Part shown: positions 1-62,321 of the stretch, piece after piece
Layout: each line of letters starts with the position of its first letter
How positions within the stretch are numbered: position 1 is the stretch's first letter
From: a virus
Virus record (IMG/VR): IMGVR_UViG_3300045988_088194
Length of the DNA: 64,000 bases
Direction: 5' to 3' (one strand)
Notes under the pieces: model-generated
Seen by the model: only the letters and a program-made list of their open reading frames with translations
The model's database searches: none
What the model was told of the DNA's origin: nothing
Position numbers and translations under genes: made by a program

Positions 1-1590
1 GAGTACTCCTATCATTATCTTCAGACAGAAGGTATTCCAGAAGATGACCTTAATAAGATGAGGTCTAAAATGGAAGGGGAGAGAGCACCAGAGGCTGATA
101 TAAAAGGAGAAAAGAGAGGCTATTATGAAGCATATAAAGTTCCTATAGGAGTTAAGGTTCCTGAAGATTTTGTCATTGATGACCCTCAAGGAGACCTATT
201 CTCTGGTTGGGACAATGCTGTTCAGTGTAATATAAACTGGAACAGTCCTATGCAGGTGATAAGACTTTTCAAGTTCCTTGGATTCAATCTGTTGGTTCAA
301 GACCCTGAGACTGGTGAAATGAAGGATAGTATTGAGTCAAAAGTGATAGAGCCTCAGAAAGAGAGGTCTACTTTGGCTTATCTATATCTTCAGTATAAGG
401 CTGCCACAAAGGTTACTTCTACCTATGGAGAGAATGTACTCAGGCAGATTAATGAGACCAGTGGAAGGCTTCATACCAACTTCAATCAGTTAGGAACTGA
501 TACAGGAAGATTGAGTTCTGGAGGAAAGGATAAGAAGGCAGGACTTGAGTACCTGAACTTTCAGAACTTTCCTGCTGACCCTGAGACCAGAGCCTGTTTT
601 ATATCTGGTCCTGGAATGAAGTGGATTAGCTGTGACTACAGTGGACAGGAGTCAAGGATTATAGCAGACATAACCAATGATGCTGCTATGCTTGACCTGT
701 TCAACAATGGTTGTGGAGACATTCATTCTCTGGTAGCAAAGATGGCATATCCAGAAATTATTGGAGATTGCCCTATTGAGGAAATCAAACACAAGTTCAA
801 GCATTGGAGAAGTGAGGCAAAGGGTGTTGAGTTTGCCATAAATTATGGTGGAGATGCCAACACTATCAAGTCAAATAAAGGTCTGCCTATACAAGAGGCT
901 CAGAAGATATATGACAGTTATATGAAAGGTTTCAAGGGTATGAAGGCATATCAGGACAGACAGAGAAAGTTTGTCATGGAAAATGGCTTTATCATCCTTA
1001 ACCCAATAAGCCAACATAAGGCATATATCTATGACTATGACCTTCTGATGAAACTTAAGTCCAAGTTTACATCAGACTTTTGGTCTGATTATAGACTGTG
1101 TAAGGGTAAAGAGACCAAGAATCTGCCAAAAGTAGTGAAGCAGGAGCTCTATAAGAGGTTTGCTGAATGTACTGATATAAGGCAGGTTACAGGGCAATAT
1201 CCTTATACAAAGAAGGTAGGACAGAAGGAAGAACATTGTACAGCAGTAGTTACTCTGGAAGATGCCTATGTACATCCTGTCAAGCATTTCTTCAAAAGAA
1301 AGGCTGCTTCTGAAAAGCAGGCAATCAACTATCCTTGTCAGGGTACAGGAGCTGTCATGTTCAAGACAGCCTCATGTTTCTTGTGGGATTATCTTGTTAA
1401 ACATGACTTAGTATTCAAAGTCAAACTCTGTATTCCAGCACATGATGAATGGAATATAGAGGTTCCAGAGGAACTTGCTGATGAAATGACCAAAGTATTG
1501 CAGGACTGTATGGCTAAAGCAGGAGGATATTTCTGTAGAAAGCTTGAACTTCCAGCAGATGCGGAGGTAAACACATATTGGATACATTAA
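1..1590 (+). CDS. DNA polymerase, family A (Pol I-like) polymerase domain; 5' end lies outside the window
   Basis: Frame 1 is open from nt 1 (EYSYHYLQTEGIPEDDLNK precedes the first Met at 58). Pol I motifs occur in canonical order: TDTGRLSS...NFQNFP, DYSGQESRI (motif A), RSEAKGVEFAINYGG (motif B), PAHDEW (motif C). Confidence 0.9.
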   Translation, partial: EYSYHYLQTEGIPEDDLNKMRSKMEGERAPEADIKGEKRGYYEAYKVPIGVKVPEDFVIDDPQGDLFSGWDNAVQCNINWNSPMQVIRLFKFLGFNLLVQDPETGEMKDSIESKVIEPQKERSTLAYLYLQYKAATKVTSTYGENVLRQINETSGRLHTNFNQLGTDTGRLSSGGKDKKAGLEYLNFQNFPADPETRACFISGPGMKWISCDYSGQESRIIADITNDAAMLDLFNNGCGDIHSLVAKMAYPEIIGDCPIEEIKHKFKHWRSEAKGVEFAINYGGDANTIKSNKGLPIQEAQKIYDSYMKGFKGMKAYQDRQRKFVMENGFIILNPISQHKAYIYDYDLLMKLKSKFTSDFWSDYRLCKGKETKNLPKVVKQELYKRFAECTDIRQVTGQYPYTKKVGQKEEHCTAVVTLEDAYVHPVKHFFKRKAASEKQAINYPCQGTGAVMFKTASCFLWDYLVKHDLVFKVKLCIPAHDEWNIEVPEELADEMTKVLQDCMAKAGGYFCRKLELPADAEVNTYWIH

Positions 1591-1714: not shown

Positions 1715-2017
1715 ATGAATGAAACGAGCAATGCTATAATTGATAATATACTCAGCCAGTATACAAAGCCAATAGAAGAAGTTCTCCATGGTTGGATTAT
1801 TCTTATAGATGGTCAGGTATGGAAATCTCCTGCAAGAGGTTTTATATTTAACTCAAGGAAACAGGCAGTTGCTGCTTTTTATAATGGGATGAGGTGGAGA
1901 GTAACAAGCTCTATGGGAAGAGCTGAAGGCAATGACCACTATTGGAGTGACACTTCAATGTATTGGGCAAGGTTTAAGGAAGCCTTGAAAGATAGAATGG
2001 AAATAAGACAGATTTAA
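1715..2017 (+). CDS. hypothetical protein (100 aa)
   Basis: ORF behind an A-rich leader and first gene of a tightly packed same-strand operon. No motif recognised. Confidence 0.5.
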   Translation: MNETSNAIIDNILSQYTKPIEEVLHGWIILIDGQVWKSPARGFIFNSRKQAVAAFYNGMRWRVTSSMGRAEGNDHYWSDTSMYWARFKEALKDRMEIRQI

Positions 2018-2018
2018 C

Positions 2019-2300
2019 ATGGAAACAAGAGAATATCTATTGAATCGGGGAGAAAAGGCAGAGAAAGATATGGTTAATCATCCAGACCATTATAATATCA
2101 ATGGCATGGAATGTATTGATGTTATGGAAAAACTGTTTGGTATAGATTGGACATATCATTTCTGTGTACTTAATGCTTTCAAATATCAGTTTAGGTTTAA
2201 TAATAAAGGCAAGGCTCAGGAAGATTTGAGAAAGGCTGCATGGTATAATACTAAGGCAGCAGAACTTCTTGAGAAGATGGAGGGAGAAGACAATGGCTGA
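2019..2300 (+). CDS. DUF3310-like small protein
   Basis: NHPDHYNINGMECIDVMEKLF...LNAFKYQFRFNNKGKAQEDLRKAAWY fits my memory of the DUF3310 pattern (HY..g.E.IDvi...N.iKY..R...KG..EDL.KA..Y). It starts 1 nt after the upstream stop. Confidence 0.6.
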   Translation: METREYLLNRGEKAEKDMVNHPDHYNINGMECIDVMEKLFGIDWTYHFCVLNAFKYQFRFNNKGKAQEDLRKAAWYNTKAAELLEKMEGEDNG

Positions 2301-2982
2301 ATACCAGAAAATACAGACACTATTTCTCAGGGATGATAAGAACATTATCATTCCTGACCAGTTCACTTATCCAGAGTTTGAGTATCTTAAAGATAATAAA
2401 TGGGAGTGTACTGAGAAGATTGATGGAACCAACATTAGAATAGAACTTGACTTCTATGTCCATGATGATGGAGTAAAAGAGGTAAATGTCAATTTCAGAG
2501 GAAGAACTGATAAGGCTAATATACCTGAACATTTGTACAGAAAGCTTAAAGAACTGTTTGACAATGTTGATTGGTTTAAGATATTTGATATCACAGGTAC
2601 CACATCCATTACCCTCTATGGTGAAGGCTATGGAGCCAAGATTCAGAAAGGAGGTAACTACATAAGTTCTGATGTAGATTTTATCCTCTTTGATGTTAAA
2701 GTTGGTAAATGGTGGCTGCAAAGGGATGCTGTTGAAGATATTGCAGATGAACTCAACATCAAAGTAGTCCCTCTTATAGGATATATGACTATCCCTGAGG
2801 CAATTGAGTATGTCAAGAAAGGCTTTAAGTCTACTATTGCAGAGAATGAGGATTATGATGCTGAAGGTCTTGTTCTTAAGACTCCTACAGGACTCCTGAG
2901 AAGGAATGGAGAAAGGCTTGTAACCAAAATCAAGACAGTTGACTTCAGAAAATACAGAGATAGTCAAGTGATGAAATCATGA
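2293..2982 (+). CDS. ATP-dependent RNA ligase-like nucleotidyltransferase (stand-alone adenylyltransferase domain)
   Basis: Covalent nucleotidyltransferase motifs: KIDGTN (motif I, KxDG), ILFDV (III), TLYGEGYG (IIIa), EGLVLK (IV), LVTKIKTVDF (V). There is no OB domain. I moved the start to ATG 2293 (MAEYQK), which overlaps the upstream stop as ATGGCTGA; the track start 2269 would overlap by 32 nt. Confidence 0.75.
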   Translation: MAEYQKIQTLFLRDDKNIIIPDQFTYPEFEYLKDNKWECTEKIDGTNIRIELDFYVHDDGVKEVNVNFRGRTDKANIPEHLYRKLKELFDNVDWFKIFDITGTTSITLYGEGYGAKIQKGGNYISSDVDFILFDVKVGKWWLQRDAVEDIADELNIKVVPLIGYMTIPEAIEYVKKGFKSTIAENEDYDAEGLVLKTPTGLLRRNGERLVTKIKTVDFRKYRDSQVMKS

Positions 2983-3167
2983 AGCAGTGGACATCAAGAG
3001 AGTTTCTAAGGATGCTTAGAAAGAATGGATATACTTACAGCAGACATAATGGGGACCATCATATCTATGTAAGTGAGGGAGGAAGGCATATATCTGTACC
3101 TCAGAAACTTGAGTGTGTCATTGCAAGAAGACTAATTAAAGAATATAATTTGAATATTGAACTATGA
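2979..3167 (+). CDS. HicA-like (YcfA family) small RNA-binding/mRNA interferase-fold protein
   Basis: 62 aa. REFLRMLRKNGYTYSRHNGDHHIYVSEGGRHISVPQ matches the HicA pattern (..l.k.Gf...r..GsHh.y....g....vP.h). The start overlaps the ligase stop as ATGA (2979-2982). Confidence 0.65.
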   Translation: MKQWTSREFLRMLRKNGYTYSRHNGDHHIYVSEGGRHISVPQKLECVIARRLIKEYNLNIEL

Positions 3168-3406
3168 GTTTAGGAGGATACCCATTGGGAGCTGACCAGG
3201 ACCCAAGAGCTCCCTGGAAAGAAAAAGATGTCTTTGTAGATGCTACAGTAAGTATCACATATCATAAGACTATAAGGGTCAAACTTAATGAGCATTATGA
3301 TACTCCTGACCTCTACAATGCTGCACAGGATGAGGTCTATGATGATGTAAAAGCACTTTCTGACAATGGCTGGTATGAGGATGAATTTGAAGTGGTAGAA
3401 GAGTAA
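3164..3406 (+). CDS. small acidic protein (80 aa), unknown; positional candidate partner of the HicA-like gene
   Basis: ATGA overlap with the HicA-like stop (3164-3167). Strongly acidic C-terminal half (DEVYDDVKALSDNGWYEDEFEVVEE). No HicB, HTH or RHH motif recognised. Confidence 0.5.
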   Translation: MSLGGYPLGADQDPRAPWKEKDVFVDATVSITYHKTIRVKLNEHYDTPDLYNAAQDEVYDDVKALSDNGWYEDEFEVVEE

Positions 3407-3987
3407 TGGCAACAGTTTATTTCATATCAGATGCTCACTTTGGACATAAGAACTTGAGTGAGAGATTTAGAGGAATGTCTGTTGAAGAGTCAGATGAATT
3501 GTTAATCAGGAATTGGAATAACAAGGTAAAGAAGAAAGATGATATTGTCTATTATCTTGGTGACTTTTCAATGGATGCTCCTGAACTTCTTGAGAAGTAT
3601 CTTGACAAATTGAATGGAAAGATATACATCATAGGAGGAAACCATGATACAAGAAGAGTGTGTACCAAATTCAAAGAGTTAGGCATTACTGTACTTGGAT
3701 GTATGGAATATAAGGGCTATATGCTCACTCATATGCCTGTAGATAGAAGGATGATTAAGGAAGGTCCATTCAGAAGATATAGAGGAAACATACATGGGCA
3801 TATCCATGCTTATGAACTTGTTTCCCCAGACTATATTTCTGTGGCTGCTGACCTCAATAATCTTACTCCTATGACTTTTGAGGAGATTATTGAGAAGCAG
3901 AAGAAGAAACATCAATTGAAAGTCAAACTCAAGAACTTCCTTATGTATGTTACCTTTTTGTTTAACAAAACTTTTAAGAAGAAATGA
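3406..3987 (+). CDS. calcineurin-like metallophosphoesterase
   Basis: Ordered metallophosphoesterase motifs: SDAHFGH (DxH), LGDF (GDxx), GGNHD (GNHD/E), HGHIH (GHxH). TAATG overlap with the upstream gene. Confidence 0.8.
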   Translation: MATVYFISDAHFGHKNLSERFRGMSVEESDELLIRNWNNKVKKKDDIVYYLGDFSMDAPELLEKYLDKLNGKIYIIGGNHDTRRVCTKFKELGITVLGCMEYKGYMLTHMPVDRRMIKEGPFRRYRGNIHGHIHAYELVSPDYISVAADLNNLTPMTFEEIIEKQKKKHQLKVKLKNFLMYVTFLFNKTFKKK

Positions 3988-4670
3988 GAATATTGGTTAT
4001 AGGTGACATACATGGTCACAATGGCTGGGATAAAATAGTCTTCAAGGAGGATTGGGATAAAGTAGTCTTCCTTGGAGATTATTTTGACAATTATAAGAAT
4101 ACTCCTGGAAAAGAGCAAGTTACTAACTTCAAGGAGATACTTGCAATGAAGGCTACTCACCCTGATAAGGTAGAACTTCTTTATGGAAATCATGACCATT
4201 CCTATCTTAACAAGGAGATGTGCAGTGGTTATAAATGGCAAAATCAACTTATTTATGAAGAAGTACTTAAGGGAGCTAAGGATAAAGGTTGGCTTAAACC
4301 TGTGTATATTCATGATGACATTATCTTCTCTCATGCAGGAGTGTCTTCATATTGGCTCAAAGAGGTAGCCCAATTAGCACATCCTCAGGATATTACTTGG
4401 GAGAATGTTCCTCTTGATAAGTTCAACTTCAATGGACTTACTGGATACAATTCATTTGGAGATACACCTTCACAGAGTCCTATCTGGATTAGACCTACAT
4501 CTCTTCTGCAATACCCTATTGATGGATACAGGCAGGTAGTAGGACATACTCATATGGGGGCTCCTGTGAATAGAGATGGAGTATGGTTCAATGATATGAT
4601 GCCTAAGTATTATATCATTATTGAAGATGGCAACATAGAATTTAAGGAGAATAAATATGAGATTAATTAA
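3984..4670 (+). CDS. metallophosphoesterase, lambda-phosphatase/ApaH-like layout
   Basis: GDIHGH, FLGDYFD, GNHDHSY, SHAG, VGHTH occur in the canonical order. ATGA overlap with the upstream gene (3984-3987). Confidence 0.8.
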   Translation: MRILVIGDIHGHNGWDKIVFKEDWDKVVFLGDYFDNYKNTPGKEQVTNFKEILAMKATHPDKVELLYGNHDHSYLNKEMCSGYKWQNQLIYEEVLKGAKDKGWLKPVYIHDDIIFSHAGVSSYWLKEVAQLAHPQDITWENVPLDKFNFNGLTGYNSFGDTPSQSPIWIRPTSLLQYPIDGYRQVVGHTHMGAPVNRDGVWFNDMMPKYYIIIEDGNIEFKENKYEIN

Positions 4671-5499
4671 ACCTTCTTATGAAATATGGGAGCAGGAGTC
4701 TGGTCTTGAAGGTGTCTATAAGATGATAGAGAAGGTAGGTAGAGTCTGTTATAAATCAGAAGATAAGATAGCAGAAGGAACTGCAAAGTCTTTTGTAGAC
4801 AGACTTATGAAATCAGGACATGGTGCTATGTTGGAACATGGTACTATATATCTGATGATTCCAAATGACCACCAAGCATATAATTTCTTCGGAGATAATT
4901 GGGTAAGAGACACCTATGGTGCATCTCCTTATTCTTCAGTAGTTTGGGATAGTGATAAAATTTACATTACAACTAACTTAAGAGTGCTGGTGGAGAATGG
5001 TTGGCTTGATGACTTGAAGTATCTTTGTGAACCTACTGAGTATCATGTTAAGAGAGTTACTGTACACTTTGTATGTGATAGAGGAGTATCCCATGAATTT
5101 GTAAGACATAGAGTGTTTAGCTTTGCTCAGGAGAGTACAAGATATTGCAATTATTCTAAGGATAAGTTTGGTAATGAAGTTACTTTCATTGAACCTTGCT
5201 GGTACAATACCTCTAAATCAAATGACCTTGCTGATGAGTATTTTATTAATAGTTTAAAAGATGCTGAACGGTTATATTTTAATCTATTAGACAATGGGTG
5301 GAAACCTCAGGAAGCAAGAGCAGTATTACCTAATGCTTTGAAGACAGAACTTGTAATGACAGGTTTTGTGGATGAATCTGGATGGATAAACTTCTTTAAT
5401 CTTAGAGCATTGGGGACTACAGGTGCACCACATCCTCAGGCTAAAGAACTTGCTGAACCACTCTTTGAAGAGTTTAAAGCCAAAGGGCTTATTAAATAA
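4657..5499 (+). CDS. thyX: FAD-dependent thymidylate synthase ThyX
   Basis: ThyX signature RHRVFSFAQESTRY (RHRxxSxxxxSxRY) and appropriate size. 14-nt overlap with the upstream gene. Confidence 0.9.
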   Translation: MRLIKPSYEIWEQESGLEGVYKMIEKVGRVCYKSEDKIAEGTAKSFVDRLMKSGHGAMLEHGTIYLMIPNDHQAYNFFGDNWVRDTYGASPYSSVVWDSDKIYITTNLRVLVENGWLDDLKYLCEPTEYHVKRVTVHFVCDRGVSHEFVRHRVFSFAQESTRYCNYSKDKFGNEVTFIEPCWYNTSKSNDLADEYFINSLKDAERLYFNLLDNGWKPQEARAVLPNALKTELVMTGFVDESGWINFFNLRALGTTGAPHPQAKELAEPLFEEFKAKGLIK

Positions 5500-5516
5500 T
5501 CACTAAAAAAAAAACA

Positions 5517-6149
5517 ATGACAACATTTATGAATAGGGATAAATTAAAAGTTGGTAATATACTTTCTGAGACAACTCACTACAAGGTAGTAGCAAAGTTT
5601 GGAGACCATATTGACTGTATTCTTCAGGAAAGTGGAGATAAAGTAAGTCTTGGAAATGACTATGCCTTGAAGTATTGTTCTTCAGGAGATGTCTATGAAG
5701 AAATCAAGGAGGTAACCAAGGAGGATAAGGCTGATGGAACTCCAGGTATAAGGTCTATCTTTGAGAACATCCATTCTTCTGAGGTATTTACAGTGGTATT
5801 CAAAAAGCAGGATAAAAAGAAGACCAGAAAGCAGATAGCAGAGGAGAAGAACTCTCAGATAAATGAGGCTATTGCTATGATTAACAGAGCCAAAGAGCAG
5901 AAGAAGTCTATGGCTGTAGCCTATACTGAAGCTCTTCAGTTCATTCAGAACAATCCTGTTCAGGATTATATTGAAGGAGAGAGTAGAACTCTCAGAGGAT
6001 ACAAGATTCAGTTCCAATCAAGAGATGGAAGATATGACTGTGTGGATATGGACATTGAAAGAACTGATACTGAGAGTGGTATAAGACCAGTTAATATCAA
6101 CACCATCAGCTCTTTAATCTATAAAGGTGTAAAATATGTAGTGAAATAA
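5517..6149 (+). CDS. hypothetical protein (210 aa), central K/E-rich helix
   Basis: Last ORF of the operon, followed by a clear terminator. No motif recognised. Confidence 0.55.
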   Translation: MTTFMNRDKLKVGNILSETTHYKVVAKFGDHIDCILQESGDKVSLGNDYALKYCSSGDVYEEIKEVTKEDKADGTPGIRSIFENIHSSEVFTVVFKKQDKKKTRKQIAEEKNSQINEAIAMINRAKEQKKSMAVAYTEALQFIQNNPVQDYIEGESRTLRGYKIQFQSRDGRYDCVDMDIERTDTESGIRPVNINTISSLIYKGVKYVVK

Positions 6150-6192
6150 AAATATACATAGAAATTCACTTACGGAATAATTAGATTTATTG

Positions 6193-6222
6193 GGGAGACT
6201 AATAAAGTCTCCCTTATTTTTT
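6193..6222 (+). terminator. rho-independent terminator after the replication/nucleotide operon
   Basis: GGGAGAC (6193-6199) / GTCTCCC (6207-6213) stem with a 7-nt loop, followed by TTATTTTTT. Confidence 0.7.
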
Positions 6223-6274
6223 CTTTATAAAATTAGTAATCAAATTAGAGAGTATGTAGATTAATACTTAATAA

Positions 6275-6306
6275 CTTGGTTAATTAAAATTAAATACTTA
6301 TCTTTG
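6275..6306 (+). promoter_or_regulatory. Bacteroidota-type promoter candidate for the giant ORF
   Basis: CTTG (6275-6278), then 20 nt, then TATCTTTG (6299-6306, fits TAnnTTTG), 26 nt upstream of ATG 6333. It lies in a 183-nt AT-rich intergenic region. Confidence 0.55.
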
Positions 6307-6332
6307 TCCTAAATCTAAATTATTATAATAAT

Positions 6333-9300
6333 ATGGCTTGTGTAAACACAAAGGAAAAAAGTTTTAAAGAGCTAGTTTCTAAATATGGTGCTTCATCAGG
6401 AACTGTAGAAAATGCCATTAAAATTTATATGGATAAAAATAATCTTGAGACCTATGATACTAATTCTCAAGATTTCATAGACCATATGGATTCTTATTTT
6501 CAGCTTAAAAGCAGTAATTTCTACTCTTCTAAAGGTAAGTACAATAGAGCTCATGCTCTTTGGGAAAAAATAAATCCTACACAAAATGTAGCAGATATAA
6601 AGACTGCTACTAAAGAGTATAATGCTCTTGTTGAAATATTTGGAGAAAATAATGTTACTGTTTTTGAAACTTCAGATGGAGGATTTAGAGTTAGGGCAGC
6701 TGAGCCTATATTTGGTGACGGTATTACTTCAGATAAGAAATTATTGAAGGAAATGTCTGACATTCTTTCTAAAGCTCCTAGAGATAAAAATGGTAATCTA
6801 TTAGCTCCTAATGGTAAAAAGTCTAATTTAACTGAAAGACAATATGCTCAAGTAAGAACTAAAGCTTTTAAAGAGTGGTTTGGTGATTGGGAAACATTAG
6901 CAGAAGGACATAATAAAAAACTTAATTTACCTGATAAACCATCTGGTCTTACTGATACTTGGATAAAAGATAATATAGTAGAATTTAAAGGTTTATCTAC
7001 GGGAACTAAATATAATATAGGCTATTCTGGTGGAAGATATTTTATCGTTATAAATATTAATGGAATTAATGTTCCATTCTATAAATCCTCAGGTTTAGGT
7101 GGAAAAAAGAATGTTGAAGCAGGTAAATGGTATCCATTTTTTGGGATATCTAAAAAAGGATGGTTAAATAAGACTACTGAGGAGGAAATAAACAACTACT
7201 ATAATAGTCAAGTACTTGAATTAATTTCTAATAAACTAGATTCATTATTTAATAATGAAGACTATGGTATAGAAATAGTAAATGGTATTCCAGTAAAGAA
7301 GGGTAAACAAGCTAATAACGCTATAGATTTAAACTTTACAGACGGAGAAAAAGTCATAAATAAAGACCTTAATCCTACTGAAAATCATAAAGATAATACT
7401 GTAAATATAGTAAATAGTAATATTGAAAAAGTTAAAAGGAGTATATCTTATACTACTTTAAATAATAAAGTCTCAAAAGTAGTAGATGAAAATGGTGAAC
7501 CTTTGGTTGTTTATCATTATACAGATAATGAAAGTCTGACTAAATTTAGTACAGAGTTTGATAATTATTTCTCAAAGGAAGGTGGTACTAAGAAAGCTAT
7601 ATTCTTTACAACAGATAATGTTGTACCTGGTAGTGAAGATAACTTCTTAACTAATAGAAAAGCTAAGCTGGCATTATTCTTAAATATAAAAAACTTAGAA
7701 GAGTTTCATGGTACTAAAGAAGATTTGCATAAACAAGGAACTTCTTATAGAGAAATAGTAAATAAATCTTCTGAAAGAGCAGGTCTTGAAAATGGTATAG
7801 TATTTACTGGTTTTGATGATAACAAGAAGGAGAATCAAACTATATATGTTGTTCATAATCCAAATCAAATTAAATCAGCTACTAGTAATACAGGAGCTTT
7901 TTCTAAAATTAATGATAGAATAGACGATTTTGAAAGTAATGTAAAAGTTACTGTTGAATATACTCCTATAGGAAAAAGTAGACAAACTTATACTATTAGA
8001 GGGAACAAAATCTTTAATAAAGAAGGTAAAGAAGTCTTTAAGACAGACAGTGTAGATAGAAACAAGATTTTTGCCAATCTTGCAGTACAGCAAGGTAGAG
8101 CAGTAGTAGTAAATCATAAGAATAAAGAGTATGTTGTAAACAACAGAAATCAGATTATCTCTGTTACTACTGGTAAAATGATGCAGTGGGATGAAAAGAA
8201 TGGAGATAGAAATGCAATCATTAAAGCTGCTCAGGAAAAGTTTAGTAAAAACAAACCCTCTGAAAGTATTCAAAAATCTGCGTCTTTTAATTGGGGAAGA
8301 ACTTCAGATAATAATTATGAAGTATCTTCAAAAGGAGATAAAAGATTTTCTGCTCTTAATGCTACCTTTAAGAAAGGTACTGTTATAGATGGAGTAGATG
8401 TAGGAGGAATGACCATTGAAGATGTATATCAGAAGGTCATTAAAAAGAGTGGTAAAGGTAAAGCTCCTGCTGTAGATAGTAAGTTAAATATTTCTTACAG
8501 AGTAAGTACCGAAGGAATTACTAAGCAATATGGAGTAGTAATAGATAAAAATTTAAAAAGAAATTATAGTGAATGGCAAAATGCTAATCCAAATGGTATA
8601 GTTGCGTATAGAGTTAATTATAGTAAATACAATACCCCTGAAGAAGCACAAGCTGGTAGAATAGGTAATCCATTTTCTGAAGGTATAGGACAAGCTAATA
8701 AAGGGGAAGATACTGTACAAAAGTTCTTTATTTGGCTTACTACTGGAAATAACTTTGGTAATCCAAAAGCTACTGAAGAATATAGACAAGCCATTCTTCA
8801 TAAACTAATTAGTACTCCAAAAGGAACTAATATATTATATTATACTGAACTCAATAGACCATCTCATGCAACTGTATTAGGTTATTTAATTAATCATAAG
8901 GAATTTATAACAAACTATAAAGATAGTGCAGAAGATTTCTCTTATACTGAAGGTTATTTACCATTGTGGCAAGAATGGGCTAAACAAAACCCTGAATTAA
9001 TAGAGGAACTAAGAACTAAAGCAGCAGGTAAAACTCTTACTGACCAGTTTGCTAATACAAGAGTAAGTCAGGCAAGAGCTTTGGCTGATATTCTTAATTC
9101 TACTAATACTAAGTCAGAAACTATAGAAGAAGCTCCTATATTTGAAGAAGAAAATAATAATATGCAATCTGCTAAAGAACTTGTAGATAGGATGATAGCA
9201 GATTCAAGAGAGCATATTAAATTTAACAAAGAGGACCATTCCTATATAGTAGATGGAAAAAAGGCTGATACCAGTGTTACTCAGTTTATACATGGTAAGA

Positions 9301-12300
9301 AAGACCTTGGTCAATGGGGAACAGCAGCCTCTGCCATAGGTACAACAGCAGACAGTGTCACAAGAGACTTCTTCAAAGGTGAGCTGAAAGATGAATATCC
9401 AAACTTGTCAGATAAGGACCTTTCCTTTCTCAAGCATGACTTGAAGAGCCTTAGGAACTTCTTTGACAAGAAGTTTGGAAAGGACAAATATACAGTAGTG
9501 ACTGAAGAGTTCCCAATAGCCTCAAAGTATACATACACTGACAAGGATGGAAAACTTAAGGGAGGTGTAATGGCAGGAACTATGGATATGCTTATCTATG
9601 ATAATGAAGGTAACTTCTATATCTATGATATGAAGACTTCAAGAAGTGGTCTCAATGAGAACAAGGTTGCTGGATATGCAAAGCAGCTGACACTCTATAA
9701 GGCTATTCTTGAGGCCAATTATCCAGAGCTGAGAGGCAAGATAAAGGAGCTTAAACTTATTCAGTTTAGGGTAGGTTATCCACAACCTGGAGCTGACTTC
9801 ATCTATTCAGCAACTGATGGTCAGTTATATCTTAATAATGTTCCTATTCAGGAGACTGAAGACTACTATGCACCTCACTTGGATTTTACTGGAAACAGTC
9901 TTGACAATCAGGTGCTTGTTCCAGTAGAACCTGTAAGTATGGATATTCACTTTGAAGGTATGACTGAAGATGAGGTAGAATCAATGAGGGAGGAAACAAG
10001 AGAGCCAGAGAGTACTGAGTTCTCACAGAATGAAGTAGATAGCCAGAGAGATAACCTCTATGGAAACCCTCTGCTTTCAGCTACAGAGAGAACATTCCTT
10101 GCTAACAATGTAATGAGTCTTACTTCCTTTATTGTTACTCACTTACAGACAAATCCTGAGGCTAATCAGTTCTATTTTGGAGACCAATTCAGTAGGCTCA
10201 ACTTTACTAAGATGTCAAGAGAAGACATCATAAGTACTGTTGGGGTAACAAAGATATTTGAGTATATAAAGGAAAGATGGTATAATCCTGATAACAGGAC
10301 TGACATTGATGATTTTGATACTCTTGACAAGTTACAGATAGCCTATGACAACTGGGCAGCCCTTGTGAAGTCTGCCTATGCAAAACTTATAACTCTTGAA
10401 GGTGTTACAGTAGTTGCTGCAAGACCTGATGAAATAAGTAGAGAGGATATTGAGACCTCTTTTCAAGAACAGATAGATGCTGGTGAACTTGAAGAGAAAG
10501 AAAGGGAGTATTGGCAGCTTGGTATAAGAAACATATCAGCAAGGTCAAGTCTTAGTGGTGATATAAGAAGGTCATTTGAAAGGCTCTTTGCCATAGACTC
10601 CAATGGAAATCCTATAAAGGACAAGTTTGGTTTCAATTTTGATACTTTTGTAGATTCTGGTGTTGCTGTAAATAGTATCCTTGAATGGACCAGAACTGCT
10701 ACAACTGTAGAAGAGATGGAGGAGATACTTGATGGAATGAAGGACTCTTATCCTTGGCTTAACTCTATCCTCAATAAGATAAAGGAAGAACCTTTCAGGT
10801 CTCAATTCTTTCAGAATTTCAGAAAGGACTTTACACAGTATAGTATTGTAACTGTGGAAAGGGATGAGAAAGGAAATAAGGTATATCAGACTCAAATAAT
10901 TAACACTAAGGGAGCATCACAGTCTGTACTTGATGAGATTACTACCTATTATAATTCAGGACTTATGCAGAACATCATAATCACTGCTGATGGTATTGAA
11001 GGTAAGGGTAGGGTTAATGTCAAGAATGTTGAGGCTCTTAAGGCTGAGAAGGACAAAATAGTATCTGACCTTAAGGGTGCATTCACTGCTGTGAGAAAGG
11101 AAGTATATAATAACACTCTCAAGAACTCTGTACCTAAGATTACAAAACTCCTAAATGAGTTAGGAATAAGAGTAGATGCCAAGACAGTCTCTAATACCAT
11201 AGTTGGTAAAGAAAGACCTAAGGACATTAATAACTCCCCAGTAATGAAACTTCTGAGTGAAATGTCCTATATGTTTGATGCCTTGCTATCAAAGAAGGAC
11301 TCTACCTCATATAATCCTCTTCTTAAAGGGGAGGAGAAGAACATCTATGGAAATTATAAATCTATAGTTGGACTTATGAGCAAGTATATTCAGGACAGTA
11401 TTGAGTCATCATCCTATGAGAATGGCAAGATGCACTACTCTTTTGTAACTCCTTCTTATATGGGAAAACTTATTCTCAATCTGAAAGATGCCATTGGCAA
11501 TCCAAGCAAGTTCAATTCATTTATGGAAGAGAATTATGGGTCATATAGATGGTTCAGGGAAGAGGATGGAACTTGGAATAATGCATGGCTTGAGTTGATT
11601 TCTGAAAGTAAGGATGCAAGACAAGGCTTGGAACATAAAGTTCAGTTGTCATTTGATGGAACTCCTTACACTGATTTGAGTGAGTTGGGATATACTCTAT
11701 CTCTTATGAGTGAGTACTTCTATGATAAGGGAAGTAGAGGAAAAGGTCCTCAGTGGGCATGGTACAGAGTTCCTATGCTTTCAAATAAACCTTCTTCCGA
11801 ATTTATAAGGTTCAAGAGATACTCAGGTTCTGAATATAAGAGAAGAATCAAGAGGGGACTCAAAATGGTTCTCAATCAGGAAGTTCTTAGGTTCAGAGCT
11901 GTACTTGAAAGAAGTGTGAATGCAAACATTGAACCTATCTCAAACTTTGATATAAGTTCTAAAGTCCTGAAGAAGAATCCTCAGATTGAGGCTAAGATGA
12001 GAGCTGGAGAACCTCTTACTCATGATGACCTTGTGAAGAATGGAAAACTTATAACTGCTGCAAGTGGAGCTTCCTTTAAGTTCCTTGAAGCTTTCAATCA
12101 AAATATAGTTGAAGGTGATGAGCTTGGAATGATGCTTATAGACAAGATAAATGGTGTCAGTGTAAATGAGGATTCTTTTGACAAGTTAGTCAATCAGAAC
12201 CTTGATTCTTACATGGACATTATAGTAAGCAAGGAGATTTCACAGTGGGAGAAGATTGGTCTATTTGATACAGAGGAAGTCAGAAGGGGCGAAGATGTTG

Positions 12301-60214: not shown

Positions 60215-60233
60215 AGTATTGAATATTAATCAG

Positions 60234-60316
60234 TTGCGGGAGGGGGACTTGAACCCCCGAGGCTAAAGAGCAGGAGCTTATGAGACTCCCCAGATACCAA
60301 CTTCTGACATCCCGCA
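60234..60316 (-). tRNA. class II-like (long variable arm) tRNA with anticodon CAT
   Basis: Hand fold: acceptor TGCGGGA/TCCCGCA, D stem CAG/CTG, anticodon stem GGAGT/GCTCC, loop CTCATAA, 14-nt variable region with GCT/AGC stem, T arm GGGGG-TTCAAGT-CCCCC, discriminator A. Confidence 0.7.
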
Positions 60317-60326
60317 ATATTTATTG

Positions 60327-60398
60327 AGCCTTCTATTGGAATTGAACCAATATCTACTGATTACAAGTCAGTTATAATAACCTTTATACTAAGAAGGC
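60327..60398 (-). tRNA. tRNA-Thr (anticodon TGT)
   Basis: Acceptor GCCTTCT/AGAAGGC, anticodon stem ACTGA/TCAGT, loop CTTGTAA, T arm ATTGG-TTCAATT-CCAAT. Confidence 0.85.
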
Positions 60399-60442
60399 AA
60401 CAACACTCTTATAGTATGCTTATAAGCCTTAAGAGTTTATTG

Positions 60443-60525
60443 TGGGGATAGAGGGACTTGAACCCTCAAGAGACATGCTCATGGGTGTTTAAGACCCACA
60501 TGTTTACCAGTTTCATCATATCCCC
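60443..60525 (-). tRNA. tRNA-Leu (anticodon TAA), class II
   Basis: Acceptor GGGGATA/TATCCCC, anticodon stem TGGGT/ACCCA, loop CTTAAAC, long variable arm, T arm GAGGG-TTCAAGT-CCCTC, discriminator A. Confidence 0.9.
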
Positions 60526-60532
60526 AATCCTT

Positions 60533-60991
60533 TTAATAGCTTCTTGTTGAATCACAAAGTTCAAACAAGTACTTGTACTTCCATATGTTGTGAATGAAAG
60601 TCTCACACTCTGACCTCACTCCTGCATATTCCACTGAATCTGGAATTGATGAGTAGAATTTAAGGGTCAAGTTTTTTACCTCAAGAATGAACTCCATTGC
60701 ATTAAGAGTGTCACTCTCAGTTCCAACTATCTTGTTTGGAGCTATATGACCAAGTATTCCTTGCATCTCTTCTGCAAGAGAATCTTGATAGTCACTTAAA
60801 ATCTCAAGAAACTCATCCAGATATACATGAATATTCCTCTTTGGAGCTGCCCAGTGAAGATTCTTACATTTAGTCTTCCATCCTTCAAGTCTATTTATAA
60901 AACTTATAAAGAATGAGAAGGTATCTGGAGTCACATCTTTTGGTGCCTGACCAGGAGCTGGTATAGGGTCTAAAAGTAAATCTCCTATCAT
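60533..60991 (-). CDS. Dps/ferritin-like four-helix-bundle protein candidate (152 aa)
   Basis: KNLHWAAPKRNIHVYLDEFLEILSDYQDSLAEEMQGILG fits the Dps ferroxidase-region pattern (HW.v.G..F..lH..ldE.y.......D.iAER...lG). Confidence 0.5.
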   Translation of the reverse strand: MIGDLLLDPIPAPGQAPKDVTPDTFSFFISFINRLEGWKTKCKNLHWAAPKRNIHVYLDEFLEILSDYQDSLAEEMQGILGHIAPNKIVGTESDTLNAMEFILEVKNLTLKFYSSIPDSVEYAGVRSECETFIHNIWKYKYLFELCDSTRSY

Positions 60992-60999
60992 TTTCTTTG

Positions 61000-61031
61000 C
61001 AAATATAAGTATTTTATTTTAAACTTCCAAA
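61000..61031 (-). promoter_or_regulatory. Bacteroidota-type promoter candidate inside the tRNA array
   Basis: Minus strand reads TTTG-gaagtttaaaataaaatact-TATATTTG (full consensus). It ends only 8 nt before ATG 60991, implying a very short leader. Confidence 0.6.
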
Positions 61032-61051
61032 TAAAATTGTAAATTTTTTAG

Positions 61052-61125
61052 TGGAGACTGTGGGAGTTGAACCACACTTTTCTGGATTTTCAGTCCAGCA
61101 CATTTACCACTAATGTTAAATCTCC
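61052..61125 (-). tRNA. tRNA-Phe (anticodon GAA)
   Basis: Acceptor GGAGATT/AGTCTCC, D stem ACAT/ATGT, anticodon stem CTGGA/TCCAG, loop CTGAAAA, T arm TGTGG-TTCAACT-CCCAC. Confidence 0.9.
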
Positions 61126-61129
61126 AAAG

Positions 61130-61212
61130 TGGGAGTAAAAGGATTTGAACCTATTCAGTCTGAGACACCAGATTTACAGTCTGGCACACATCACCATCTG
61201 TGCAGTACTCCC
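61130..61212 (-). tRNA. tRNA-Tyr (anticodon GTA), class II
   Basis: Acceptor GGGAGTA/TACTCCC, anticodon stem CCAGA/TCTGG, loop CTGTAAA, 13-nt variable region, T loop TTCAAAT (one T-stem mismatch). Confidence 0.85.
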
Positions 61213-61286
61213 AGTATATATAGTGTTCAAGAAAGTTCTTTTAGAGTAAAAAGGGTTTATCTCTTAAATCAGCTATGGAAGCATAG

Positions 61287-61359
61287 ACTCCAGGGTAAGA
61301 ATTGAACTTACACAAAGTAGTTTTGCGGACTACTGCATTAACCTTTCTGCCACCTGGAG
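61287..61359 (-). tRNA. tRNA-Cys (anticodon GCA) with C at position 33
   Basis: Acceptor CTCCAGG/CCTGGAG, anticodon stem GTAGT/ACTAC, loop CCGCAAA, T arm GTAAG-TTCAATT-CTTAC, discriminator T (Cys-like). Confidence 0.7.
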
Positions 61360-61365
61360 AATCAG

Positions 61366-61438
61366 GGTGTCTTATTGGAGTTGAACCAACATCATCTTGA
61401 GCCACAATCAAGTGCTCTACCATTAAGCTAAAGACACC
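61366..61438 (-). tRNA. tRNA-His (anticodon GTG) with encoded G-1
   Basis: G-1 pairs with C73. Acceptor GTGTCTT/AAGACAC, anticodon stem CTTGA/TCAAG, loop TTGTGGC, T arm GTTGG-TTCAACT-CCAAT. Confidence 0.9.
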
Positions 61439-61440
61439 AG

Positions 61441-61513
61441 TGGGCAAGTAAGGACTTGAACCTTCATTTCCTGGGTATCAGCCAGGTTTCCTAACCAATT
61501 AGAAGACATGCCC
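61441..61513 (-). tRNA. tRNA-Ile (anticodon GAT)
   Basis: Acceptor GGGCATG/CTTGCCC (one mismatch), anticodon stem CCTGG/CCAGG, loop CTGATAC, T loop TTCAAGT. Confidence 0.75.
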
Positions 61514-61519
61514 ATTATG

Positions 61520-61592
61520 CAGATTCTTAAGGACTCAAACCCTAATCAAGGGTTTTGGAGACCCCTATGCTAACTAATTGCACCAAGAACCC
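61520..61592 (-). tRNA. tRNA-Trp (anticodon CCA)
   Basis: Acceptor GGGTTCT/AGAATCT (two G-T pairs), D stem GTGC/GCAT, anticodon stem GGGGT/ACCCT, loop CTCCAAA, T loop TTTGAGT (unusual), discriminator G. Confidence 0.75.
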
Positions 61593-61598
61593 AAGTGG

Positions 61599-61669
61599 CT
61601 GGGGTAGAAGGAATTGAACCTTCATCCACAGATTAACAGTCTGTTGCTTGACCTTCCAGCTATACCCCA
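61599..61669 (-). tRNA. tRNA-Asn (anticodon GTT)
   Basis: Acceptor TGGGGTA/TACCCCA (T1-A72 as in E. coli Asn), anticodon stem ACAGA/TCTGT, loop CTGTTAA, T arm GAAGG-TTCAATT-CCTTC, discriminator G. Confidence 0.85.
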
Positions 61670-61700
61670 GTTTCAACTAAAAAAAAACAAATGAGAAATG

Positions 61701-61772
61701 TGGACTCTTGGGGAATTGAACCCCAACTCTCTGCTTGCAAAGCAGAAGTGCTACCATTATCACTAAGAGCCC
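61701..61772 (-). tRNA. tRNA-Ala (anticodon TGC)
   Basis: Acceptor GGGCTCT/AGAGTCC with the G3-T70 wobble (Ala identity pair), anticodon stem TCTGC/GCAGA, loop TTTGCAA, T arm TGGGG-TTCAATT-CCCCA. Confidence 0.9.
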
Positions 61773-61776
61773 AAAG

Positions 61777-61850
61777 TAGGGAAGAAAGGACTCGAACCTT
61801 CATCTTCTACATCCCAAATGTAGCCAATTAACCAATTATTGTACTTCCCT
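61777..61850 (-). tRNA. tRNA-Pro (anticodon TGG)
   Basis: Acceptor AGGGAAG/CTTCCCT, D stem CAAT/ATTG, anticodon stem CTACA/TGTAG, loop TTTGGGA, T arm GAAGG-TTCGAGT-CCTTT. Confidence 0.85.
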
Positions 61851-61865
61851 ATAACAATCATATTG

Positions 61866-61951
61866 CGGAGAGCAATGTACTTGAAACATATCCCCCTAAG
61901 AGAACCTCATGTTTAGCAGACAGAGCCAGCAACCTTACTGGTTTACTCTCC
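61866..61951 (-). tRNA. tRNA-Ser (anticodon GCT), class II, imperfect
   Basis: Acceptor GGAGAGT/GCTCTCC, discriminator G, loop CTGCTAA, 17-nt variable region, T loop TTCAAGT. It has an anticodon-stem mismatch and an extra nucleotide before the D stem. Confidence 0.65.
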
Positions 61952-61968
61952 TTTATATCTCTATTATG

Positions 61969-62053
61969 CGGAAGAGTGAGGTCCTGCCCCCCATACCCCT
62001 CAGAGTACCCTTTGTTTTCAAGACAAGGCTGAGTCTCACTCAGTTACCCTTCC
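61969..62053 (-). tRNA. tRNA-Ser-like (anticodon TGA), class II, non-canonical D and T loops
   Basis: Acceptor GGAAGGG/CTCTTCC, discriminator G, loop CTTGAAA, variable-arm stem TACTC/GGGTA. However, the T loop reads GGCAGGA (no TTC) and the D loop lacks GG. Confidence 0.5.
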
Positions 62054-62059
62054 AATATG

Positions 62060-62133
62060 CAGGCTATATGGGATTTGAACCCATCTTCTCCACTGTGACA
62101 GAGTGGCATCTTCACCAAGCAGACCCATAGCCT
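62060..62133 (-). tRNA. tRNA-Asp (anticodon GTC)
   Basis: Acceptor AGGCTAT/ATAGCCT, anticodon stem CCACT/AGTGG, loop CTGTCAC, T arm ATGGG-TTCAAAT-CCCAT, discriminator G. Position 8 is G. Confidence 0.8.
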
Positions 62134-62137
62134 ATGA

Positions 62138-62210
62138 TACTCTCAATAGGACTTGAACCTAACATTTCTGCCTTGAAAGGGCAGCATCCTAACCTTTAGA
62201 TGATGAGAGT
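62138..62210 (-). tRNA. tRNA-Glu (anticodon TTC)
   Basis: Acceptor ACTCTCA/TGAGAGT, D stem ATCT/GGAT, anticodon stem CTGCC/GGCAG, loop CTTTCAA, T loop TTCAAGT. Confidence 0.8.
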
Positions 62211-62248
62211 ATAATAGTTGGTATTTCACAACTACCTTAATTAGTTTG

Positions 62249-62321
62249 TTGAAGGGGAAAGATTTGAACTTTCATCTACCTGTTTCAAAGACAGGAATGT
62301 TCACCGTTACACCACCCTTCA
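62249..62321 (-). tRNA. tRNA-Gln (anticodon TTG)
   Basis: Acceptor TGAAGGG/CCCTTCA, D stem GTGT/ACAT, anticodon stem CCTGT/ACAGG, loop CTTTGAA, T arm GAAAG-TTCAAAT-CTTTC. Confidence 0.85.

Follow-up and report, generated by a model that had tools for sequence, protein, structure and literature searches.

Does a crAss-like phage carry, behind its DNA polymerase gene, a set of genes that repairs broken RNA? The question is raised by a stretch of viral DNA of 64,000 nucleotides (IMG/VR record IMGVR_UViG_3300045988_088194, the whole of which is called here the 64-kb window), where seven genes of the + strand follow each other at 2019-5499 in the order DUF3310, RNA ligase, HicA-like, g80, MPE1, MPE2 and ThyX (MPE, metallophosphoesterase). 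A preliminary description of this sequence had proposed an operon that pairs the ligase with the two phosphoesterases as a candidate RNA or tRNA repair module. In our analysis the ligase, MPE1 and MPE2 stand an even chance of forming a kinase-less module, which would heal 3' ends and seal RNA breaks. The closest annotated relatives of the phage belong to the Steigviridae/Asinivirinae, namely IAS virus, cr116_1 and Kehishuvirus, and the window comes from a crAss-like phage of the Steigviridae type, with a family-A DNA polymerase, a putative RNA polymerase open reading frame (ORF) and a tRNA array. A nucleotide search of GenBank phages matched only short fragments of ThyX.

We re-read the junctions of the chain from the sequence and the ORF list, and all of them were as previously given: the DUF3310 and ligase genes overlap by 8 nt (ATGGCTGA at 2293-2300), ATGA is found at 2979-2982, 3164-3167 and 3984-3987, TAATG at 3404-3408, and MPE2 and ThyX overlap by 14 nt at 4657-4670. 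The seven genes of the proposed operon are thus all present, although the identities of DUF3310, the HicA-like gene, g80 and ThyX had been missed. The pairing itself is looser than described: the ligase and the phosphoesterases lie in the same chain but are not adjacent, the HicA-like and 80-aa genes standing between them, and the seventh gene is that of ThyX. This run of six overlaps is the longest in the window, and about 0.2 such runs would be expected by chance according to our own estimate (0.4^6 x ~42 starting positions). However, 19 of the 47 same-strand junctions of the window overlap, so overlap is the house style of this genome; it indicates tight packing and co-transcription, not necessarily a pathway. 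The frequency of overlaps also fits a competing explanation, a mosaic: accessory genes with no functional connection would have gathered in a hypervariable slot behind PolA, open to insertion and exchange, and would be packed and co-transcribed for that reason only, with the ligase acting alone on 3'-OH/5'-PO4 breaks and the MPEs unrelated to it. We regard this as a serious possibility, though one of minor probability.

The ligase and the two phosphoesterases

The ligase gene (2293..2982, + strand) encodes a minimal ATP-dependent RNA ligase of 229 aa, which consists of a nucleotidyltransferase (NTase) domain only and has Lys42 as its catalytic residue. It matches PF09414 (RNA_ligase) with 67.8 bits for a cutoff of 27 (E 1.6e-18). 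All the nucleotidyltransferase motifs are present, as had been noticed: I (E41-K42-x-D-G-T-N), III (YGEGYG, E111), IIIa (FILFD), IV (E191-G192-LVLK) and V (K212-x-K214). In an alignment of 43 representatives drawn from a search of 1.8 billion proteins, K42, E111, D134, E191/G192 and K212/K214 are invariant. The family is very large, with 645 clusters at 50% identity having E<1e-30, and nearly all its members are 205-245 aa long; in the longer ones the extra length comes from inteins or from extensions without annotation, and no kinase or phosphatase domain is fused to them. The GenBank records of relatives already carry the labels 'RNA ligase' and 'mRNAse (HicA)' on the orthologues of two of the seven genes.

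Single-sequence searches of the PDB were too weak and family profiles were used instead. The ligase profile matched the NTase domain of T4 Rnl2 (1s68) with E 7.6e-16 and Rnl3 with 1e-5. An AlphaFold (AF2) model of the ligase (pLDDT 95.7) gave a similar ranking with Foldseek: T4 Rnl2 (2hvr and 1s68 on top), trypanosome REL1 and NgrRnl (Rnl5) at ~1e-9, then Rnl3 at ~1e-6 and fungal Trl1 ligase domains, the sole Rnl1-type match, at ~3e-4 to 1e-3, while DNA ligases came no better than 1e-4 and capping enzymes no better than 1e-2; the ligase domain of Pnkp from Clostridium thermocellum (CthPnkp) was matched only with E ~1e-2. The Pfam match, the Rnl2 profile match and the Foldseek ranking agree that the protein is an RNA ligase rather than a DNA ligase or a capping enzyme, and its sequence and predicted fold place it in the nick-sealing Rnl2/Rnl5 clade. 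It has no Rnl2 C-terminal domain (the Rnl2 equivalog model TIGR02307 gives 38 bits for a cutoff of 197), nor the N-terminal OB module of Rnl5 (no PF21189 match, and only 41 residues ahead of motif I). Because the accessory domains of both families are missing, we file it in neither.

MPE1 and MPE2 both match Pfam and carry the motifs of the calcineurin-like superfamily (DxH, GD, GNH(D/E), H, GH). MPE1 (3406..3987, + strand, 193 aa; PHROG_547, E 4e-41) is a metallophosphoesterase of the aq_1665 type and a candidate 3'-end healing enzyme. Its family profile matches aq_1665 from Aquifex (PDB 1xm7) with E 7.4e-27, profile positions 4-174 aligning with chain residues 3-187, and the metallophosphoesterase motifs D9-x-H11, GD53, GNHD78-81, H109 and GHxH131-134 are invariant. 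The next PDB match is the glycerophosphodiesterase GpdQ, a distant second. Matches to PdeM (TIGR04123, E 2.8e-5, far under the cutoff) and to YfcE are marginal, and the 'Nuclease MPE' structure 6nvo gives E 0.18. In this clade the C-terminal 30 residues of MPE1 (3880-3987) form a basic/hydrophobic tail, KQKKKHQLKVKLKNFLMYVTFLFNKTFKKK, which other members of the family do not have.

MPE2 (3984..4670, + strand, 228 aa; PF00149, E 2.8e-11) is of the PPP/lambda-phosphatase/Pnkp type and a candidate 2',3'-phosphoesterase. Its family keeps the motifs DxHG, GDYxD, GNHD, HAG, PIWIRP and GHT, and the metal-binding residues are D8/H10, D32, N69/H70, H117 and H188. With its AF2 model (pLDDT 96), Foldseek retrieved a cold-active phosphatase from Shewanella, PP5, calcineurin and lambda phosphatase (1g5b), as well as CthPnkp, an enzyme of bacterial RNA repair, through its phosphatase domain (4j6o, E 9e-7); all these matches have E between 1e-7 and 1e-6 and TM-scores of 0.5-0.66. 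A profile search of the PDB put protein phosphatases on top, PP1 included, and also found ApaH. The comparison with the Pnkp phosphatase that had been suggested for these enzymes gives a match for MPE2, but protein phosphatases match it equally well, and the best match of MPE1 is aq_1665. Homology alone does not settle the substrate of either protein.

Some of these matches would also be expected if MPE2, MPE1 or both were a lambda/NinI-type protein phosphatase or a hydrolase whose substrates are nucleotides, signalling ones included (Ap4A, cyclic nucleotides, dNMPs), and which would act with the DUF3310 protein and ThyX in nucleotide-pool control, or else in counter-defence. Besides the protein phosphatases and ApaH at the top of the structural and profile searches, MPE2 matches a NinI-like PHROG (only E 4.6e-9) and the NCBIfam ApaH model (E 4e-4), its neighbours in a viral fold library bear the label 'Ser/Thr phosphatase' (at the level of names only, TM 0.5-0.6), and GpdQ follows aq_1665 for MPE1. 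The genes around them point in the same direction, with ThyX and the gp1.7-like DUF3310 protein in the cluster and dUTPase and NrdD upstream in relatives. However, the matches of MPE2 are all weak and equidistant, and the GDxVDRG motif of PPP/lambda enzymes with its phosphate-binding Arg is not found in MPE2, whose family has GDYFD(N/S/T), GDYFDN in MPE2 itself. As moreover both families are found in the genomic neighbourhood of polynucleotide kinases and ligases, we consider such a role unlikely.

Gene neighbourhoods in other phages

The context was examined in three samples of 80 loci (numbered with L), centred on the ligase, MPE2 and MPE1. In the first two, 77 and 75 loci respectively are not close relatives of the window. 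The third consists of the best 80 of the 371 IMG/VR relatives of the MPE1-type gene of locus L175 (loci L195-L274); it represents one broad phage group (MPE identity at least 57%), and its counts are not independent events. In this sample we observed a P-loop kinase in 61 of the 80 loci, usually immediately downstream of MPE1, and within 7 kb an RNA ligase of the Rnl5 type (OB+NTase) in 45, often as a contiguous MPE-kinase-ligase unit; an MPE2-type gene is found in 14 and a DNA ligase in 13. The order of the MPE, kinase and ligase genes is permuted between loci, which argues for selection on their linkage. In L175/L195 the ligase, the MPE1-type gene and an AAA_33 kinase are contiguous, in that order. 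A profile of the kinase matched first an unnamed Rhizopus kinase in the PDB (9d8a, E 5.5e-4) and then, weakly, T4 polynucleotide kinase, Pnkp1 and the CthPnkp kinase (E 1e-3 to 4e-2). The cassette kinase has about 130 aa and contains 'LLRGLPGSGKST'; L230:7001-9166 and L195:5854-8037 are examples of the cassette.

MPE2-type genes are found in similar company. A kinase resembling polynucleotide kinase (PNK) lies directly upstream of them in L131, L134 and L135, and Rnl5-type ligases immediately precede them in L118 and L119 and are found at a distance of 1.5 kb upstream in L172, those of L118 and L172 having the OB domain PF21189. Kinase-less pairs of the kind seen in the window recur as well: an MPE1-type gene adjoins a minimal ligase in L052, with a stop/start overlap, and is near one in L094 and L074, each time in a locus without kinase; the ligases of these three loci are 45-50% identical. 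Such pairs, together with the strong linkage of both MPE families to PNK-like kinases and RNA ligases whatever the gene order, speak against a mosaic of unrelated genes.

Since polynucleotide kinases and RNA ligases recur near members of both MPE families, we favour the end-healing role that the preliminary description had proposed for the phosphoesterases; the recurrent linkage speaks for it, whereas homology does not assign their substrates. In the module as we picture it, MPE1, MPE2 or both, as binuclear-metal phosphoesterases, would strip the 2',3'-cyclic or 3'-phosphate from broken RNA and leave a 3'-OH. The Rnl2-like ligase of 229 aa would then react with ATP at Lys42, pass the AMP to a 5'-phosphate end and join this end to the 3'-OH. 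Such repair would offset the cleavage of RNA during infection, by RNases of host defence or possibly by the HicA-like RNase of the phage itself. DUF3310 and ThyX would serve the supply of dTMP/dTDP, and the HicA-like protein and g80 would be a separate conserved pair, both sets co-transcribed with the module but outside the repair chemistry. Defence models of PADLOC gave nothing useful.

The same parts could instead process nicks in connection with replication: at the fork they would clean and seal nicks that end in RNA, or damaged ends, of phage DNA or of RNA:DNA hybrids, and not act on tRNA or mRNA. The cluster directly follows PolA; in two deeply diverged groups, an ATP-dependent DNA ligase is encoded about 2 kb from the relative of MPE2; the best NCBIfam match of MPE1, though weak (2.8e-5), is the ligase-associated DNA-damage endonuclease PdeM; and no DNA ligase is annotated in IAS virus or Kehishuvirus. 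According to two reports (PMC5397189, PMC4408790), the Rnl2/Rnl5 clade seals duplex nicks with an RNA 3'-OH strand, and loss of DraRnl makes Deinococcus sensitive to ionising radiation. On the other hand, RNA and DNA ligases do not show a complementary distribution: Kehishuvirus has neither kind, so that host LigA is evidently enough. In addition, MPE1 matches PdeM and 'Nuclease MPE' only marginally, and the partner kinases of the cassettes resemble polynucleotide kinases of RNA-repair enzymes. A role in nick processing therefore seems to us quite unlikely.

The DNA ligases concerned (PF01068 + OB) lie about 2 kb downstream of MPE2-type genes in L140, L150, L160 and L167 and in L141, L147, L154 and L183; as those of the two groups are only 25-29% identical, the linkage between MPE2 and DNA ligase is old. 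In one phage group a second metallophosphoesterase, a small ORF, an MPE2-type gene, a phage-encoded SmpB (PF01668, E 1e-51) and a sigma-70-like factor stand in a conserved row. The second phosphoesterase is found in 12 loci, SmpB in 12 and the sigma factor in 11; phosphoesterase and SmpB occur together in ten (L126, L130, L133, L137, L146, L148, L155, L171, L177 and L180, at ~4700-8100 of each locus), and in L136 and L138 the genes for SmpB and the sigma factor are present but the second phosphoesterase is missing.

Points against a repair module, and the other genes of the cluster

Several observations weigh against RNA healing and sealing by the ligase, MPE1 and MPE2. Some concern the proteins themselves. 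The ligase stops at residue 229, 15 residues past motif V, and this last stretch has just one helix (215-228); in T4 Rnl2 and DraRnl the accessory domains are required for sealing 5'-PO4 nicks, and we know of no means by which a bare NTase ligase recognises its substrate. It matches no Rnl1 family in Pfam or NCBIfam and is not of the Rnl1 clade, that is, the RNA ligases which repair tRNA anticodon loops, as in T4. The homology of MPE1 stops at aq_1665, an uncharacterised structural-genomics protein, and MPE1 of the window shares only ~25% identity with its counterparts in the kinase-ligase cassettes. In its modelled structure, MPE2 is as close to protein phosphatases as to Pnkp.

A second point is the missing kinase. 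A Walker A scan confirmed that the cluster has no polynucleotide kinase P-loop, as had been noticed before, and when a kinase was searched for in the whole 64-kb window, neither the profile of the PNK-like kinases (A6) nor the Kehishuvirus PNK matched anything; the only convincing Walker A motif there belongs to a 751-aa protein, a putative terminase by its size and position. With no kinase in the window, 5'-OH ends produced by metal-independent RNases would not be sealable by the cluster alone. The trio could repair only breaks that already have a 5'-phosphate, or it would lean on an enzyme of the host or on an unrecognised one.

The remaining points concern distribution. In the ligase-centred sample the minimal ligase is usually alone: among the 77 loci outside the close relatives, MPE2 is nearby in none, MPE1 in three and a PNK-like kinase in one. 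When 1207 neighbour proteins were grouped by BLAST into 900 clusters, no recurring partner appeared, and a Pfam census of 150 immediate ligase neighbours revealed no recurring family and no enrichment of PNK, phosphatase or MPE. Relatives of MPE2 also have as neighbours ATP-dependent DNA ligases, DnaB, PolA, or SmpB together with a sigma factor, and part of the linkage may be mere residence in replication modules.

Among relatives of the phage, g100-DUF3310-ligase-HicA-g80-MPE2 is common to five close IMG/VR genomes, MPE1 being missing in two of the five and a shorter, divergent Thy1-domain ORF replacing the window-type ThyX in three. The whole block DUF3310-ligase-HicA-g80-MPE1-MPE2 is intact in relatives whose MPE2 is 74% and 68% identical to that of the window. 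In a relative with 57% identity, MPE2 follows PolA-DUF3310 without ligase, HicA or MPE1, and three more crAss-like loci are similar; MPE2 occurs without ligase in L192, L111, L112 and L115. IAS virus and cr116_1, whose ligases are 57-59% identical, have ligase-HicA-g80 and no MPE. Kehishuvirus has no ligase, and the same slot contains a P-loop polynucleotide kinase, an HAD phosphatase, a phosphoribosyltransferase and an HxsC-like gene. The co-occurrence of the genes in relatives, proposed as a check on the module, is thus found within the clade, and the MPE families are linked to kinases and ligases elsewhere, but in sister genera the parts are separable: among these lineages, ligase and MPEs come and go independently of each other.

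This independent assortment suits a mosaic of accessory genes, along with the minimal ligase having no conserved partner in the 77 other loci, the different content of the slot in Kehishuvirus, and the HNH, GIY-YIG and LAGLIDADG ORFs that stand in or between these genes in relatives. Against it, in addition to the linkages described above, the entire block is kept down to 68% identity.

We also considered, and rejected, that the RNA ligase stands in for an absent DNA ligase. Neither IAS virus (L187/L188, whole genome), which has the RNA ligase and no PNK, nor Kehishuvirus 'tikkala' (L194, 54000-100841), which has no RNA ligase, has an annotated DNA ligase.

The slot is a hot spot of homing endonucleases in relatives, with an HNH/NUMOD ORF between HicA and g80 and a GIY-YIG/NUMOD1 ORF after ThyX, and their PolA is split at two different sites, by a LAGLIDADG ORF and by a Zn-finger ORF (inserts at L008:8910-9509, L005:11337-11960, L008:5702-6316 and L005:6471-7043). 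ThyX of Kehishuvirus 'tikkala' is split by an insert of ~400 nt (L003, ~5600-6000). PolA and ThyX of the window are uninterrupted.

The tRNA connection made in the preliminary description found no support. Of the 17 tRNAs mentioned there, ARAGORN finds 15 and Rfam 14, in an array of 15 genes on the - strand (60233..62321), ~55 kb from the cluster. The two extra tRNAs may have been called in gaps of the array (60526-61050 and 61851-62058), where ARAGORN and Rfam see none; small ORFs lie within the array on the - strand at 60533-60991 and 61241-61447. It had been suggested that the phage both replaces and repairs tRNAs, but arrays occur in relatives with and without ligase or MPEs: IAS virus, with the ligase and no MPEs, has 22 tRNAs, and Kehishuvirus 'tikkala', with PNK and HAD phosphatase and no ligase, has more than 20. 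That tRNA is the substrate, or that the cluster is coupled to the tRNA array, is unsupported, and this too counts against the module as first proposed.

The four other genes of the chain fall into two pairs. The most conserved element of the region is the HicA-like/g80 pair, which may be an RNase in its own right. The HicA-like protein (2979..3167, + strand, 62 aa), a small RNase-like protein with a dsRBD fold, matches PF07927 with 35.6 bits for a cutoff of 27 and PHROG_353 ('toxin'); the His of its G-x-H motif ('NGDHH') aligns with 'KGGH' of HicA from T. thermophilus (1whz), and the gene is kept in all Steigviridae examined. g80 (3164..3406, + strand, 80 aa) always follows HicA in relatives. 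It matches no HicB-type antitoxin and no other family of Pfam, PHROG or NCBIfam, and a homologue search found only unnamed Crassvirales proteins. In Kehishuvirus 'tikkala' (L003:4403-4843) the HicA-like protein and the g80 homologue are one in-frame ORF of 146 aa, while they are two overlapping genes in the window and in other genera; because of this fusion, g80 looks like a partner domain rather than a classical HicB antitoxin.

The DUF3310 protein (2019..2300, + strand, 93 aa; PF11753, E 9e-16) resembles the C-terminal half of the T7 nucleotide kinase gp1.7, an enzyme not known to have a P-loop: BLASTP aligns it with residues 95-189 of gp1.7 (28% identity, E 1e-7), and PHROG families labelled 'nucleotide kinase' match it with E 5e-24. 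ThyX (4657..5499, + strand; PF02511, E 7e-33; TIGR02170, 91.9 for a cutoff of 87.9) is a flavin-dependent thymidylate synthase, which belongs to nucleotide metabolism and not to RNA repair. DUF3310 is better grouped with ThyX, because the known activity of gp1.7 is on dTMP and dGMP (PMC11897194, PMC9339283) and because the gene follows PolA even where there is no ligase. That the DUF3310 protein is the missing RNA 5'-kinase is a long shot. An unconventional full system, in which it would phosphorylate 5' ends without a P-loop, the MPEs heal, the ligase seal and HicA-like/g80 cut a specific RNA for rejoining, so that the phage would do more than mend damage caused by the host, appears to us very improbable.

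The chain extends 5' beyond 2019, as g100 (1715..2017, + strand), a conserved hypothetical gene kept in close relatives, stops 1 nt before DUF3310. Upstream of it is the C-terminal part of PolA, the family-A DNA polymerase (58..1590, + strand), identified by the match of its translation to PolA of crAss-like relatives and by the Pfam domain DNA_pol_A on orthologues. Downstream of ThyX, g210 (5517..6149, + strand), also a conserved hypothetical gene kept in relatives, is the last before a terminator-like hairpin and T-run on the + strand (6192..6224, hairpin 6192-6214), with a stem of 9 bp and 5 G-C pairs. Neither g100 nor g210 matches a Pfam, PHROG or NCBIfam family. The hairpin is the first site listed in our terminator scan and the one with the most G-C pairs, and transcription of the unit likely ends there. 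The cluster makes up the tail of this DNA-polymerase unit, which runs from PolA through g210.

Beyond the hairpin, an ORF of 3507 aa (6333-16856) contains 'SDFDIDKLYV', which we read as the DxDxD-type motif of crAss virion RNA polymerases, and the ORF at its position in relatives is annotated as RNA polymerase; on this motif and this annotation, it is a candidate virion RNA polymerase. It is followed after 1 nt by an ORF of 1359 aa (16858-20937), and near 21 kb of the window both the coding strand and the GC skew switch.

Significance and comparison with known systems

crAss-like phages are among the most abundant viruses of the human gut, and to our knowledge little is known of how they handle host defences that target RNA. 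If the ligase, MPE1 and MPE2 do form a repair module, the aq_1665 metallophosphoesterase family would receive its first function, in RNA 3'-end healing, and a very large family of minimal, bare-NTase RNA ligases would be defined. Heal-and-seal would also exist in a form without a kinase, and one would have to ask which type of RNA break this form answers. Otherwise, the cluster would be an ordinary mosaic of accessory genes. Since phage heal-and-seal RNA repair is already known (survey PMC7824862), the concept is unsurprising; the interest lies in concrete biochemical predictions for two uncharacterised and very widespread protein families in abundant gut phages.

When we compared the window with known systems, we found that each shares some of its parts. 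The NTase domain of T4 Rnl2 (1S68) is the best profile and structural match of the ligase and has the same motifs, EK(I)xGTN among them, and the catalytic Lys comes ~35-42 residues into the chain. The window ligase is however only 22-28% identical to it and has no helical C-terminal domain (229 aa versus 334), and the isolated NTase domain of T4 Rnl2 cannot seal nicks alone. In bacterial Pnkp (Clostridium thermocellum Pnkp-Hen1) a lambda-type binuclear metallophosphoesterase heals 2',3' ends alongside an ATP-dependent ligase, as proposed here; unlike Pnkp, the window has separate genes, no kinase, no Hen1, an Rnl2-like instead of an Rnl4 ligase, and an MPE2 without the motif Arg.

T4 Pnkp and Rnl1, the answer of T4 to the anticodon nuclease PrrC, follow the logic of the preliminary description, a phage that heals and seals broken RNA; but the phosphatase of T4 is of the HAD type and fused to a P-loop kinase, and its ligase is of the Rnl1 type and specialised for anticodon loops, and none of these types is found in the window. 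The sister genus Kehishuvirus has PNK and HAD-phosphatase genes in the same slot. T7 gp1.7 is represented in the window by its C-terminal half only, the N-terminal half being absent, and its substrates are mononucleotides. PdeM, or 'Nuclease MPE', of bacterial Lig-Lhr DNA-damage clusters is likewise a small metallophosphoesterase coupled to a polynucleotide ligase, although its partner is a DNA ligase and its sequence similarity to MPE1 is marginal.

The cassette of L195-L274 (aq_1665-type MPE, PNK-like kinase and Rnl5-type ligase) shares with the window the MPE1 family, an MPE2-type gene that is often nearby and a ligase of the nick-sealing clade. It differs by its kinase, present in most of these loci, and by its OB-bearing ligase, where the window has no kinase and a bare NTase. 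What is distinct in the window is thus the combination of a minimal ligase outside the Rnl2 and Rnl5 families, an aq_1665-type MPE and a second MPE of the Pnkp/PPP type, without a kinase.

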